A stretch of DNA of 42,619 nt from a virus: the IMG/VR virus record IMGVR_UViG_3300001528_001028, positions 1-42,619 of that record. One strand, given 5' to 3'. Positions 10,796-30,631 of the stretch are shown here, one piece after another. Positions within the stretch are counted from its first letter, which is position 1. The number at the start of each line of letters is the position of its first letter. Both the position numbers and the translations under genes were made by a program. Below the pieces are notes generated by a model. That model ran no database searches. It was not told the origin of the DNA and was given only the letters and a program-made list of their open reading frames with translations.

Positions 10796-10966
10796 AACGA
10801 AGAACGAAGAATTAAGAACGAAGAACTACATTCAACAGACCCTGCGCCGTCCGAAAGCTTTATGTTCATTCATAAAGTATTCGGCTTCGCCTGCGAGTGT
10901 CGAGGATTGCAAGGCAACGCCGTAGCAATCCCAGTTCTTCATTCTTCGTTCTTCATTCTTCATTCC
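10796..10966. repeat. Armed palindromic element E1 (ORF-less; aacgaag/aatgaag heptad arms)
   Basis: Left arm 10796-10826 (aacgaag aacgaag aattaag aacgaag aac). Right end carries box cgcctgcgagtgt, hairpin ggattgc...gcaatcc and arm 10934-10966. Confidence 0.8.
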
Positions 10967-12416
10967 CGTAATCGCCCGAGTCCAACCCGTCGGAACTCGT
11001 TTTGAGAAATACCGTTTTTACGACATACCAATCAATCCCGTCAACGTCGGTAAACGCGCGGCGCACACTGCATTCAATCGTCTGCCCGTCCGCCATTTTC
11101 TGGACATAGCCCTTATAACTTGCGGGCTCTCCCGTTTTCGGAACGTAGGAATAAACGGGGTTCGATTGCAACACACCGACGGAATTTGTGATATTGATGC
11201 CCTTGTACGTTCCGCCGATGCCAGAAATCGCGCCCGCCAACGCGCCCGAGACACTCTTCGAATCCACAACATACTTGCCCTTATCCTTGTCGTATCCGCC
11301 CGCGCGGAAGAATACCCAGTTTTTGACGTGGAACGGCACGACAAGCGCGGAATTTAACATCGAAGCCGACACAAGCTTTTCGGTAATTTTCGCCTTGTAC
11401 TTGCGCACAGCTCCCACCGTTTCGATTGCGCCGCCCGCATAGTCTACGTCCAGACACCCCGCCCATCGAAAATCGATTATGTCGAAATACTCCCGCAATA
11501 CATTCGCCTTCGAAACCGATACCGCCGAACCGTCGGTATTCACATACGCGCGCGTCGTCCATACAACGCCCGCATTGTCGTCGGTATAGTCGGCACTCCA
11601 CGGCAGATTGACAGTCGCCGTTCCGCCGAAAAACGCGTCGCGCGGATTGTCGGAAATCGCCTTGCTCCCGACAAGCGCAGTGGGAAACGCAGGCTTCCCG
11701 CCCACAAGACCGACACCGCGAAATTCCACGCATTTAAGCCCAAGCTCCGCATCGAAAACCCGCGCCGAGAAAATCCTCATCTTGGTCTTTGAAACCGCTT
11801 CCGAAGGCACGCTTTTTGTATACACCGAACCGTCGCGGAAAACAATGCTCTTGGCAGTCCATACCGCGCCCAAAACGTCGTCGGCAAGCCGCGCCTCAAA
11901 CGGAATGTTCGCGGTCGCCTCGCCGCCCCAAAACGCGTCGGAAGCCAATTCATACAGGCTCTTCCCCGATTTCAACGCCGTCGGATAAATCGGCTTCCCG
12001 CCGATAAGCCCCACGCCGTCGAAACGTACCACTTTCAAACCGTAATTCCAGTCGGAAAGCTCCGCCGCAAAAACGCGCCGCCTGTCCGCGTCAGAAATTT
12101 CCCGCGCGGATTCGTCCGCCACATACGCCGAACCGTCGCCGAACAAAACGCTTTTGCACGTCCAAGAGGGAATCTGCCTGTTCGCCCTGTGGTAGGAATA
12201 TTGCGGCGGATACTTCGGGGCACTCGCGCCGTTGCGGAACGCAAAAAGCGGGTCGTCGTAAATCGTCCACGGCTCGCCCTTCGACGAATTGCCGCCCCGA
12301 AGAGCCGTAGGATATTCTGGCGCGCCCTCGCAAACGAACGAAGCCTCCAACAATCCGTACTGATTTTGTTGAAGGCTCGCCGCAACTACATTTTGGTTTT
12401 TGGAAAGTTCTACCAT
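10953..12416 (-). CDS. Tail protein with three tandem ~110-aa domain repeats (487 aa)
   Basis: Recurrent GGKP(I/A)(Y/F)PTAL...DAF(W/F)GG(E/T)AT(A/V)N(I/L)P...VWT(A/T)... The last four codons and the stop lie inside the E1 arm. Confidence 0.5.
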   Translation of the reverse strand: MVELSKNQNVVAASLQQNQYGLLEASFVCEGAPEYPTALRGGNSSKGEPWTIYDDPLFAFRNGASAPKYPPQYSYHRANRQIPSWTCKSVLFGDGSAYVADESAREISDADRRRVFAAELSDWNYGLKVVRFDGVGLIGGKPIYPTALKSGKSLYELASDAFWGGEATANIPFEARLADDVLGAVWTAKSIVFRDGSVYTKSVPSEAVSKTKMRIFSARVFDAELGLKCVEFRGVGLVGGKPAFPTALVGSKAISDNPRDAFFGGTATVNLPWSADYTDDNAGVVWTTRAYVNTDGSAVSVSKANVLREYFDIIDFRWAGCLDVDYAGGAIETVGAVRKYKAKITEKLVSASMLNSALVVPFHVKNWVFFRAGGYDKDKGKYVVDSKSVSGALAGAISGIGGTYKGINITNSVGVLQSNPVYSYVPKTGEPASYKGYVQKMADGQTIECSVRRAFTDVDGIDWYVVKTVFLKTSSDGLDSGDYGNEE

Positions 12417-12697
12417 CTAAAAACTCCAATGATTTTGTCGATAGTCAGCGTCGCGCCGCCCGCCGCTAGCGCGACATACACCGCAAGCTTCGTGAAGCCC
12501 GCCTTCAGGTTGCGGATGTCCGACTTCAGCGCAATTATGTCGTGCTCGCCCTCGCGGATGCGCCCGCGCAGGGCTTCAAGCTCAATCGAAATCTTCGTAC
12601 TGGTCGCGACAAACGCGGCTATCGACTGTTTGATTTCGGTCGTGTCCTCCTTGATGTGCTCGACATCCGACTTTAGCGATGCGATTTCCTTTTCCAT
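12410..12697 (-). CDS. Coiled-coil protein with a C-terminal transmembrane segment (XhlA-like, lysis-associated?) (95 aa)
   Basis: Heptad-rich N-terminus and C-terminal LAVYVALAAGGATLTI. TAATG overlap with the upstream gene. Confidence 0.4.
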   Translation of the reverse strand: MEKEIASLKSDVEHIKEDTTEIKQSIAAFVATSTKISIELEALRGRIREGEHDIIALKSDIRNLKAGFTKLAVYVALAAGGATLTIDKIIGVFRW

Positions 12698-12924
12698 TAC
12701 CGTCTCTCAATTTCCAATTCCAATTCGTTTATGGTCTTCAACGCGTCTCTGCACCATTCGGGCGCGGCAACGCGGGCGGCTTCAAAGTCCGCGCGGTCGA
12801 TAAGCCGCTTGGCGTTGTCCAAACGGGCGTGCATTGCACAGCCCGTCAGAACGAAGAACGAAAAACTAAGAACGAAGAACGCAAATAGATGTTTTATCCT
12901 AATTCTTAATTCTTCATTCTTCAT
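12697..12924 (-). CDS. Small lipoprotein, o-spanin-like (75 aa)
   Basis: ggagga SD, 6-nt spacer, then ATG at 12924. Signal peptide LFAFFVLSFSFFVL followed by lipobox LTGC. Confidence 0.55.
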   Translation of the reverse strand: MKNEELRIRIKHLFAFFVLSFSFFVLTGCAMHARLDNAKRLIDRADFEAARVAAPEWCRDALKTINELELEIERR

Positions 12925-12930
12925 TTTTAA
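12848..12930. repeat. Armed hairpin E2 (arms only, degenerate)
   Basis: Arm agaacgaagaacgaaaaactaagaacgaagaacg (12848-12881), 19-nt loop, then aattcttaattcttcattcttcatttttaa (12901-12930). It encloses the start codon of the lipoprotein gene. Confidence 0.55.
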
Positions 12931-13102
12931 TTCCTCCGCCATCAATGGCGGAATCAACCGCCGCGTCCTTTTTCTGCTTTCGTCCAATGGCTTCGGCGAC
13001 ATTCGCGGCTTCCGCCATATCCAAGCCGCATTCCACAAGCTCCTTGAAACTTGGAAACGCCCTGAACAACGCCGCAAGCAACTGAATTATCGCCGAAACC
13101 AT
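12914..13102 (-). CDS. Small hypothetical protein with a hydrophobic N-terminus (62 aa)
   Basis: ORF MVSAIIQLLAALFRAF... It ends in IKNEE, which is encoded by the E2 arm. Confidence 0.4.
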   Translation of the reverse strand: MVSAIIQLLAALFRAFPSFKELVECGLDMAEAANVAEAIGRKQKKDAAVDSAIDGGGIKNEE

Positions 13103-13108
13103 ATCCGT

Positions 13109-29190: not shown

Positions 29191-29504
29191 TGCGCCGCCT
29201 CCTTGTTTTTGAATGCTTTTTTTCGGTCGTTTTCGTACAAAACGTTATTCAAACCAAGCAACATATCCCATTCGACATTGATACTATCGTTGAATGCTTC
29301 CACTGCCTTTCGCATTTGGGGGCTGTATTCGTCTACTTTCAACAACGGCACTTTTTTTACCAACGTTTCGTAATTGGCATTTAGTGTTGCCAAATGCAAT
29401 TTGCCTAAATTCAGCTCTATAAGCTGTTTGGCGACTTCCACTCTCACTTGAAATAACCTTTCGAGCGTATCAAACAATTTTTTTGTCGGAATTTTACTTT
29501 TCAT
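29187..29504 (-). CDS. Hypothetical helical protein (105 aa)
   Basis: ATG at 29504 (MKSKIPTKK). Confidence 0.45.
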   Translation of the reverse strand: MKSKIPTKKLFDTLERLFQVRVEVAKQLIELNLGKLHLATLNANYETLVKKVPLLKVDEYSPQMRKAVEAFNDSINVEWDMLLGLNNVLYENDRKKAFKNKEAAQ

Positions 29505-30003
29505 CACCGACCTCCATTTCCCAAGTGTACACGTCGCCGTCAATTCTCAAACGCACGCCCTCAAAGGGGAAAGCGTATTTCCAACGGGCAAGAAGCTTAG
29601 ACCCTGGGTGTCCCGACAAAAAGCGAGGTTCGCCGAGTTGCGCAGCGCATTTTCCCGCATACTCTCCGTTCGTCCATTGTTTCCCGTCATCGGAAAATGA
29701 GCAAAATTTCCCGATTTCCAACTTTCTGCCCGTCGAGAACTGCTCTTTCGAAATCCACCCAATAACCTTATCAAGGTATTCGTCGCGCTCGTCATTTGAG
29801 TCGAAATATCTCGTGGCAATTCCATTGGTATGTTCCGCTTTGTTGAGCGAAATCCAAACGGCACTATCGGCAAAATCCAAACCGTATCCGATAAATCTAA
29901 CACAATCCGATTCTTCAAAGAACTCTTTGCCCTCAACGCCAAGCTGTTGCCCTACAAGCACACGTTCGAATTTAGCAAACCGAATTACAAGTTTCTTTGT
30001 CAT
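29494..30003 (-). CDS. Hypothetical protein (169 aa)
   Basis: ORF in the coupled operon. Confidence 0.5.
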   Translation of the reverse strand: MTKKLVIRFAKFERVLVGQQLGVEGKEFFEESDCVRFIGYGLDFADSAVWISLNKAEHTNGIATRYFDSNDERDEYLDKVIGWISKEQFSTGRKLEIGKFCSFSDDGKQWTNGEYAGKCAAQLGEPRFLSGHPGSKLLARWKYAFPFEGVRLRIDGDVYTWEMEVGDEK

Positions 30004-30007
30004 CGCC

Positions 30008-30502
30008 TTACCTTTCGTCTCCGTCGCCCTTGATTACGCCGCGCGCGGCTCTGTCGCGCAGCTTTGCAATGTTGATTTCCGCGACCTGTTCGAGCGTGTA
30101 GCCATACCCTTTGGCAAGCCCGCCGACCTCAAAAACGATGTCGGCTAAATGCTCGTCTTCGCAGTCCAAAAAAACACCTACCCAATAGACGAGCAACCGC
30201 ATTATAGTTTCGTCGAACCTGTCGTCGTCTACTTCTTCCGAAAAACAATTTTTGAGTTCTGCGGAAAAATTCGCGTCATTGTTTTTGTCATAGTAGTCCG
30301 CCAAGTTCGCGACAAACCAAAGTATGTCGCTCAGTTCTTTGATAAACGCCTTTTCGTCAAACACGCCGTCGCGCCTGCGCTTTGCAAGCTTGCCCGCCGC
30401 TTCGCCGACCTCTGCAATGAGTCCCAACGTCAAGTATTCTTCGTTGTCCGCCGTTTCCGTCCTAAACGATACGGCTTGTTTTTGGTATTCTTCAAATGTC
30501 AT
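30008..30502 (-). CDS. MazG-like nucleoside triphosphate pyrophosphohydrolase (164 aa)
   Basis: LGLIAEVGEAAGKLAKRRRDG...ELSDILWFVANLA, a typical all-alpha NTP-PPase EXXE/D pattern. Confidence 0.7.
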   Translation of the reverse strand: MTFEEYQKQAVSFRTETADNEEYLTLGLIAEVGEAAGKLAKRRRDGVFDEKAFIKELSDILWFVANLADYYDKNNDANFSAELKNCFSEEVDDDRFDETIMRLLVYWVGVFLDCEDEHLADIVFEVGGLAKGYGYTLEQVAEINIAKLRDRAARGVIKGDGDER

Positions 30503-30539
30503 TTTTATCCTTATTTTTGTTTTGGTTAATCATACCCAC

Positions 30540-30631
30540 GGATTGCCAATAAAACTTTCGGCAACGCCTGCGGGAGTCGCGGGCGCGAACGCGCCCCAAT
30601 TCTTAATTCTTCATTCTTCGTTCTTCGTTTC
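30540..30631. repeat. Half-element E9 (same end type as E8; no left arm)
   Basis: See E8. Arm aattcttaattcttcattcttcgttcttcgtttc at 30598-30631. Confidence 0.8.

Follow-up and report, generated by a model that had tools for sequence, protein, structure and literature searches.

Heptamer-armed palindromic insertions of the rRNA intervening-sequence kind in a phage genome, and inverted heptamer arrays around intervening-sequence protein genes in bacteria

Correia elements, Neisseria's miniature transposable elements with inverted repeats (MITEs), have unique 26-bp inverted repeats and a TA duplication. In the REP/REPIN-RAYT system, a GC-rich hairpin with a conserved adjacent motif occurs after genes as singlets or inverted doublets, and a gene is flanked by inverted modules, while the RNase III sites of phage T7 are irregular intergenic hairpins with internal loops in long transcripts. 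Correia elements are able to generate promoters, and RNase III binds or cuts the transcripts made from them (PMC2649163). Promoter-early stem-loop (PeSL) modules of T4-type phages, which are repeated units of promoter plus stem-loop, border indels and swapped genes (PMC2839356, PMC4122927). The intervening sequence (IVS) in the 23S rRNA of Coxiella has three copies of GACAGAT at its 5' end and is excised by RNase III, which cuts in the first repeat; its protein, S23p, is a homopentamer, and for the function and spread of rRNA IVSs and the encoded protein only hypotheses have been offered (PMC4990558). Genes for intervening-sequence proteins (IVPs) have also been recorded within CRISPR-Cas loci (PMC3936711) and in rRNA insertions of candidate phyla radiation (CPR) bacteria, in both cases with repeats unmentioned. 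Here we describe nine loci, E1 to E9, of heptamer-armed palindromic elements in a 42,619-nt viral DNA (IMG/VR record IMGVR_UViG_3300001528_001028; this whole stretch is called the window hereafter). We consider it probable that the nine loci represent one family of selfish insertions, namely the family carrying the four-helix-bundle IVP of PF05635/TIGR02436.

An earlier note, made from the letters of this DNA alone, had proposed a nine-copy family with arms of four to five tandem heptamers, and both proposals stood. Tandem Repeats Finder (TRF) reported 17 period-7 arrays with 4.0-5.3 copies each, all at the nine named loci, and no comparable period-7 array elsewhere in the window. Allowing up to 2 mismatches, (AAYGWAK)x3 matched 44 times, compared with 0 in 100 shuffles. 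Of the 17 arms, 15 are 31 nt long and comprise exactly five AAY cores, one every 7 nt; in several arms an odd third unit leaves a central internal loop. A 13-nt box, CRCCWGYGRGWST, has 12 exact matches (0.03 expected by chance), every one within the elements, and two further copies with one mismatch are both at left ends. Inspection of the sequence gave the same order at each box-bearing end: box, 3 nt, GC hairpin, arm.

The open reading frames (ORFs) enclosed by E3 and E7 both encode proteins of PF05635/TIGR02436, the family labelled as the intervening-sequence protein of 23S rRNA (PF05635, E=2e-20 and 7e-18; TIGR02436, E=6e-26 and 9e-24). The two proteins are 69% identical to each other, and the IVP-family profile matches PDB 2RLD (5 chains). 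Followed in the direction of the ORF, a complete element consists of an arm with five G-A-A-Y cores at 7-nt spacing, the GC hairpin, the reverse-complement box and a core, followed by the IVP gene, box, hairpin and inverted arm. The core contains a sigma70-like TTGnnn, about 18 nt and TAgAat, and overlaps the palindrome TTTATGA..TCATAAA. The short elements keep this layout minus the ORF; E1, E2 and E4 to E7a are 86-232 bp in length with terminal inverted repeats. Thus E3 and E7 are the ORF-bearing copies and E1, E2, E4, E5, E6 and E7a are MITE-like ORF-less derivatives. E3 and E7 are parent copies with ends matching those of the ORF-less elements, but their gene is that of the IVP, a protein with no known transposase activity. 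The elements are as follows.

E1, 10796..10965, minus strand: ORF-less; arms 10796-10826 and 10934-10964, flavours AACGAAG / AATGAAG (TRF arrays 10796-10826 and 10935-10965); box 10888-10900 and hairpin 10904-10931, at one end only.
E2, 12848..12933, minus strand: minimal element of two arms (TRF arrays 12848-12881 and 12900-12933) and a 19-nt loop, no box, no hairpin.
E3, 13613..14260, plus strand: full element; arm 13613-13644, hairpin 13646-13662, reverse-complement box 13665-13677; sigma70-like TTCACT-18-TAGAAT at 13679-13708; IVP ORF 13765-14115 (plus strand); right end with box 14195-14207, hairpin 14210-14227 and arm 14231-14260 (TRF arrays 13613-13644 and 14231-14260).
E4, 16918..17149, minus strand: ORF-less; AACGTAG arms (TRF arrays 16918-16954 and 17117-17149); two boxes, 17029-17041 (minus) and 17083-17095 (plus).
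E5, 17702..17886, minus strand: ORF-less; downstream of the SU10-type major capsid gene (TRF arrays 17702-17733 and 17854-17886).
E6, 20367..20550, minus strand: ORF-less; inserted at a stop/start overlap, ATGA (TRF arrays 20367-20398 and 20518-20550).
E7 composite, 25652..26361, minus strand: ORF-less E7a (25652-25835), IVP ORF 25841-26218 (minus strand) and E7b, the 5' end of this IVP copy, with box 26295-26307, hairpin 26311-26327 and arm 26330-26360 (TRF arrays of the composite 25652-25683, 25804-25835 and 26329-26361).
E8, 27038..27129, minus strand: one-armed 5' half upstream of a 74-aa gene; arm 27098-27128 (TRF array 27098-27129), hairpin, box 27064-27076, core TTGCCG...TGTTTTTATGG.
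E9, 30540..30629, minus strand: one-armed 5' half; arm 30599-30629 (also the TRF array), box 30565-30577.

The earlier note had given every full element two box-hairpin ends in inverted orientation. This is true of E3, but E1 has a single box-hairpin end and E2 has arms only; likewise, E7b, E8 and E9 are not complete copies but one-armed 5' halves.

If the elements are insertions, related phages should include genomes with empty sites, a check that the earlier note had proposed. Four related phage contigs, 87-94% identical to the window in the flanking genes, were compared: L004/L015/L016 from IMG/VR, and L100, L146 and L147 from ENA assemblies. Empty sites were found for E1, E3, E4, E5, E6, E9 and the E7 composite. 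L004 is without E4, E5 and E6, and L100 is without these three and E9. Over 21 kb of aligned sequence L146 lacks E1, E4, E5, E6 and the whole 717-nt E7 composite; there, 25648-26364 of the window is replaced by 54 nt including a resident terminator. L147 lacks E1, E3 and E6, its intergenic sequence at the E3 site being 'taaaaaggacaatATG', and has different elements at the E4 and E5 sites, that at the E4 site with hybrid arms. Partial occupation was also observed: L004, L016 and L100 have the IVP cassette of E7 without E7a; at the orthologous site of E8, L004 and L016 have a half element that differs in box, in hairpin and in heptad flavour; and L016 and L100 have an extra half element between a 74-aa gene and ssb, where the window has none. 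Among Mu-like phages, two sites empty in L102 are filled in L103 or L101, and one L101 element lies exactly at the breakpoint where the homology of L101 to L102 and L103 ends. Since close relatives have empty sites, the elements are inserted DNA rather than conserved sequence of the coding or terminator type. Two ORF-less elements at positions 11877-12671 of L101 bracket a 142-aa gene at a mosaic breakpoint, exactly where its homology to L102 and L103 stops, a composite, cassette-like arrangement.

At the junctions, a short spacer, often a stop/start overlap (ATGA, TAATG), is replaced, and a new leader bearing a ribosome-binding site is present on the downstream side. We concluded that the insertions, which vary in presence among phages of about 90-93% identity, land at gene junctions and replace the intergenic spacer. 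Terminator-like resident GC hairpins occur at some intergenic sites (17150-17212 in the window; 7790-7830 in L146). At the E5 site such a hairpin stands in place of the element in L004, L100 and L146, and at both the E5 and E7 sites the presence of an element displaces or replaces the resident hairpin. Some target sequences resemble an arm heptamer, as in CATTATT (site A of L102), ATGAACG (E6) and GAAGAAGG (E9); this microhomology between target and arm was spotted post hoc and is a lead only.

The earlier note had placed all copies at gene boundaries, which does not hold for E2 in any simple sense. This element straddles the overlap of two small genes, for which gene order and a lipobox suggest a spanin-like pair. 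From E2 come the stop and last codons of the gene upstream and also the first 29 codons of a lipoprotein of 75 aa, encoded on the minus strand (12924 down to 12697); the element supplies the entire signal peptide of this lipoprotein: the purine arm encodes MKNEELRIR (n-region), the pyrimidine arm encodes FFVLSFSFFVL (hydrophobic region), and the lipobox LTGC comes next. The orthologous lipoprotein of L147 has a nearly identical mature part and an unrelated signal peptide, MIARAISFCAVAVLLGGC, with no heptads.

The box-hairpin form of the element was then followed in other genomes. It is common in ENA/Logan contigs of other phages with close IVP homologues: nine elements lie within 12 kb of L143, which has a lambda-like head module, eight in the lambda-like L145, and others in the Mu-like L101 and L103. 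Since the same box grammar occurs in unrelated phages, this subfamily has spread among unrelated phages of one host clade. Verrucomicrobiota genomes encode IVPs 77-80% identical to those of the window, with GAATTAA/GAATGAA arms tight around the ORF, and this closeness suggests that the host clade of the box-hairpin-carrying phages is probably Verrucomicrobiota. In IMG/VR, scans with two box variants gave only the known relative as a genuine match, the other matches being chance hits in coding sequence; megablast of 21 kb against GenBank phages gave no match. A scan of IMG/VR with (AACGTAG)n recovered the relative L004 and a few unrelated box-less heptad-armed hairpins, so heptad-armed elements occur beyond the box subfamily. 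These hairpins, at 3871-3943 of L001 and about 5500-5650 of L006, belong to an unrelated viral contig (IMGVR_UViG_3300045912_000433) and have AACGTAG arms and short cores.

Placement at gene boundaries within phage mosaics raises the question of whether the elements are regulatory cassettes of the phages' own. They would then be composite terminator-promoter modules like PeSLs, kept for setting transcription units and spread by homologous recombination, with the IVP as a shuffled small cargo. The core is sigma70-like (TTGnnn-18-TAgAat) and at E3 stands just upstream of the IVP gene; the hairpin with T-rich heptads scores as a terminator at both E3 ends; one-armed modules precede three consecutive early genes in L016; 9 of 10 window modules are, by sequence inspection, oriented with the genes; and the elements, in the manner of PeSLs, mark the edges of indels and mosaic segments (PMC2839356, PMC4122927). 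However, the same grammar is found in unrelated phages, and in L143 inspection showed 7 of 9 elements to run against the direction of the genes. The close relative L146 does without any element over 21 kb, promoter-like matches are not enriched, bacterial IVP elements have arms but neither promoter-like core nor box, and a tie to one protein family across phyla is unexpected for a phage-specific motif. We therefore regard this explanation as improbable, though the strongest of the alternatives, and retain the reading that the loci are selfish insertions of the IVP-carrying family.

That reading leads to the bacterial relatives of the IVP genes. We aligned 32 homologues and fetched 80 metagenomic loci, whose IVPs are 42-58% identical to those of the window. 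Within 200 nt of the IVP ORF, 129 period-7 rows were found in 30.4 kb, compared with 35 in 118.6 kb further off, a density about 14 times higher. Inverted arrays stand on both sides of the IVP gene in 60 of the 72 loci with enough flank, and on one side in 9 more. The unit varies by locus, but the upstream arm, in ORF sense, has the core G-A-(T/A)-T and then three bases that vary (GATT in 39 and GAAT in 12 of 65 arms); position by position, the upstream cores gave G in 52 of 59, A in 59 of 59, T in 44 or A in 13, and T in 56. The modal copy number is 4.5, equal to five cores, and holds for 24 of the 65 arrays upstream of the gene and 34 of the 64 downstream of it; the few octamer arrays likewise have about 4.4-4.8 copies. 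We concluded that inverted heptamer arrays of about five units are a general signature of IVP genes in bacteria. Literature searches on heptamers with a four-helix bundle, on PF05635/TIGR02436 and on STRR found no description of this general layout, so the five-core signature appears not to have been described before. The box itself did not occur in the 80 metagenomic IVP loci (0 in 175 kb).

In these loci the arms abut the ORF and leave no room for a promoter; therefore, bacterial IVP genes are probably transcribed by read-through from host transcripts. In 58 of 70 loci the IVP gene and the gene upstream of it run in the same direction. On one bacterial contig (L144, 7917-10526; ENA ERZ27237441 k141_410475), the methyltransferase and endonuclease genes of a restriction-modification operon are separated by an IVP gene whose arms consist of GAAATAA units, and ORF-less heptad-armed elements flank this IVP gene on both sides.

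Could the ORF-less copies instead be ordinary MITEs moved in trans by a classical transposase, with the IVP as a passenger? The window itself offers a candidate, an IS1595-family DDE transposase (ORF 35200-35907, plus strand; PF12762, DDE_Tnp_IS1595, E=6e-25), the first part of whose ORF is also present in L100; a host Y1/HUH enzyme acting on the hairpins in the manner of REP/RAYT would be another. The population, in which singlets and doublets occur together with one gene between inverted modules, resembles REPIN/RAYT, and the orientation bias within the genome, seen on inspection of the sequence, is as expected for single-stranded DNA transposition. Yet the candidate 13-nt inverted repeats of the transposase ORF (35126-35138 and 35883-35895; GGATTGACAACGA) are unrelated to the element ends, and the link to this transposase was rejected. 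The elements show no 8-bp duplication, no TA and no fixed target motif. No transposase match is recorded among the called genes adjoining elements in L101-L103, L143 and L145, L144 has only a resolvase-family gene about 6 kb from the IVP gene, and the arm-enclosed gene is that of the IVP in 60 of 72 loci and never a transposase. Such movement in trans is thus very unlikely. A third possibility, that IVPs are Avd-type accessory proteins of a diversity-generating retroelement with the repeats as part of its template or target, was rejected as having next to no likelihood, since weak bAvd similarity (PF22296, E=0.009) and the reported homology of Avd with PF05635 (PMC10053308) are set against the absence of a reverse transcriptase from the scanned window ORFs and the gene lists of related loci, and against repeats that form inverted 7-nt arrays and no template/variable pair.

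For the IVP-carrying family of insertions, the next question is what its repeats do as nucleic acid. The earlier note had stated that the GC hairpin varies in sequence yet always pairs, and indeed all 39 distinct box-hairpin-arm modules of the window and related loci fold; their hairpins comprise 16 distinct outer stems, 100% paired, a value equalled in 0 of 2000 permutations. From ten oriented short elements RNAalifold recovered the arm stem, a helix between box and reverse-complement box, an outer spacer helix and a central hairpin; 18 of 58 pairs changed on both sides, and U-G pairs recur in the box and central helices of the sense strand. The arms, of about 31 nt, pair, and single elements have minimum free energies of -81 to -93 kcal/mol (z about -9.1 to -9.7). 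For E1, for instance, the two strands gave -81.2 (minus) and -66.6 kcal/mol (plus), with z about -9.3, and E5 gave -93.3 vs -84.0 kcal/mol (z -9.7). The earlier claim of selection on nucleic-acid structure rather than on a peptide accordingly held in part: hairpin, box helix and central helix keep pairing through sequence change, but the arms are not strictly complementary and E2 is translated. The GAWT core, conserved and ORF-oriented, speaks for recognition of the sequence in addition to pairing. In our reading, the inner helices are structural, in RNA or in single-stranded DNA, and the arms are firstly arrays of a recognised motif that also pair.

Two further ideas on the arms were tried and rejected. 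The first was a conserved internal loop, with arm mismatches gathered at mid-stem; in 80 loci the mismatches are instead spread along the stem, mainly at variable heptamer positions. Heptads as stop signals in all frames would apply to AACGTAG and AATGAAT but fail for AACGAAG and the common GATTnnn, and so have no general role of this kind.

Several results weigh against parts of the interpretation preferred here. Concerning the arms, G-U mismatches were not in excess of A-C (36 vs 45 in 64 metagenomic loci), wobble relative to the transcribed strand showed no excess in the arms of phage elements (21 vs 23), a manual tally of wobble relative to each element's own sense favoured sense in 7 elements and antisense in 2, which is not significant, and unit variants are mostly unmirrored between the two arms. 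Because there is no wobble excess and variants are unmirrored, selection for RNA pairing of the arms is unproven. On the favourable side, 14 of 19 oriented elements have a better-folding sense strand (mean difference 7.4 kcal/mol, Wilcoxon p=0.02), but these elements are related by descent and not independent. A sigma70 promoter scan across the region found 9 sites vs 11.6 expected; the consensus scan placed a promoter-like site at E3 only and terminator-like hairpins at the E3 ends, in numbers not above chance. At the examined junctions no target-site duplication of fixed length was found, the spacer being replaced and filler present instead, and ATGA on both sides of E6 is the sole possible duplication (4 bp). 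As the junctions are unclean and have no consistent duplication, transposition by cut-and-paste or copy-and-paste is unestablished, and exchange of whole intergenic cassettes by recombination would give the same junction picture. The IVP is not a known transposase or nuclease, its binding to heptads is a prediction, and cleavage of element transcripts by RNase III, though likely, is argued by analogy. Finally, two distant PF05635-like genes (30% identity; tblastn, uncultured GenBank phage records) have no heptads, so the heptad layout does not cover the whole superfamily.

With these reservations, the following course of events is proposed. On read-through transcription the arms and inner helices would fold into a long irregular hairpin, which RNase III would cut, as in IVP-bearing rRNA IVSs and Correia elements; with such cutting, insertion within operons or rRNA would do little harm, and the cistrons on either side would be uncoupled. 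In the phage subfamily the promoter-like core and terminator-like hairpins may in addition rewire expression at gene boundaries. From the anatomy, the heptad arrays are most likely recognition sites of the IVP pentamer, the sole protein that the element encodes. Copying might proceed by gene conversion or homing-like transfer between co-infecting genomes, by microhomology-mediated insertion or through an RNA intermediate; the replaced spacers, filler leaders and divergence near the junctions speak for gene conversion between co-infecting genomes or for microhomology-mediated events more than for classical transposition.

A bolder proposal, which we put forward tentatively and think rather less likely to be right than wrong, is that PF05635/TIGR02436 IVPs define a widespread, undescribed class of mobile elements, whose ends are inverted arrays of five G-A-W-Y cores and whose IVP ring reads one core per subunit. 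The cores, spaced by 7 nt or sometimes 8 nt, would be bound by a homopentameric, TRAP-like ring on single-stranded RNA or DNA. If the pentamer does read the cores, this would account for a copy number that stays at about five with units of 7 or 8 nt while arm length is not constant, and for a core that is conserved and ORF-oriented while the three spacer bases drift. The rRNA IVSs, the IVP genes embedded in operons (for example between cmr or restriction-modification genes) and the MITE-like phage copies would then form one system, and the 30-year-old question of how rRNA IVSs arose and move would become testable.

Whatever the fate of the ring model, the window presents an element of the IVS kind outside rRNA that multiplies within and between phage genomes, with non-autonomous derivatives and datable insertion polymorphisms. 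The inverted five-fold GAWT heptamer signature, valid for most sampled IVP genes, provides a search rule for such elements and may explain IVP genes inside CRISPR-Cas and restriction-modification operons (PMC3936711; L144). For the phages, it means that small insertions swap intergenic spacers, add ribosome-binding leaders and on one occasion became a signal peptide.

The window as a whole is a phage genome encoded mostly on the minus strand, with an SU10-type major capsid protein, SSB, a primase-helicase and a 2364-aa polyvalent protein. The last (ORF 1092-8186, minus strand) has MuF_C and LPD38 domains, and its versions in relatives are 2538-2878 aa in length. Four tandem 102-nt units (90% matches) lie at 34478-34883 within ORF 34176-35006 (minus strand) and would correspond to a 34-residue protein repeat. 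A cluster of short tandem repeats at 33371-33605 (TATCTTATC x3.4, the 11-mer TGCTTGGGCAC x6.5 and a 22-mer x3.4) lies in or adjoins ORF 32957-34051, just 3' of the primase-helicase gene; it is iteron-like and may be a replication origin.

How, then, do the elements compare with described systems? The earlier note could assign them to no named repeat or RNA family, and Rfam agreed, with no family at gathering score and only two sub-threshold chance matches at E<=1 in the window. The diversity-generating retroelement protein Avd has a homologous pentameric four-helix-bundle fold and binds nucleic acid, but no reverse transcriptase or template/variable repeats were found with the window elements. 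T7 RNase III sites are similarly irregular intergenic hairpins with internal loops, likewise in a genome of podovirus-like type, but they are fixed, conserved and gene-less and are not insertions. PeSLs resemble the elements in their place within phage mosaics and differ in not being palindromic doublets, in having no heptad arrays and in being untied to one bacteria-wide protein family. REPIN-RAYT systems share the hairpin plus motif, the dispersed singlets and doublets and the single gene between inverted modules, but the flanked gene here encodes a PF05635 four-helix-bundle IVP and not a Y1 HUH transposase, and REPs are without heptad arrays.

The two analogies drawn in the earlier note, with MITEs and with rRNA IVSs, fared better. 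Like Correia elements, the short ORF-less elements are small intergenic palindromic insertions whose presence varies between close relatives; unlike them, they have five-fold heptamer arms, no consistent duplication and an IVP-encoding parent copy. With the rRNA IVSs that carry IVP/S23p (Coxiella burnetii, Leptospira) they share the enclosed protein family, present in two copies of the window, complementary ends with a long stem, and a length, about 430-650 nt, like that of E3. The heptamer repeats reported from the 5' end of the Coxiella IVS (PMC4990558) are also matched in the window, where the arms are of the five-core kind. The phage elements differ in lying between, and once inside, protein-coding genes, in having many copies with ORF-less and one-armed derivatives, and in three additions not seen in bacterial IVP elements, namely the box, the GC hairpin and the promoter-like core; no rRNA or other Rfam family was found in the window, and the element flanks are phage protein genes. 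The elements thus resemble both rRNA IVSs and Correia-type MITEs, but they lie outside rRNA, show no duplication of fixed length and come with no transposase, and we have filed them under the IVS kind.

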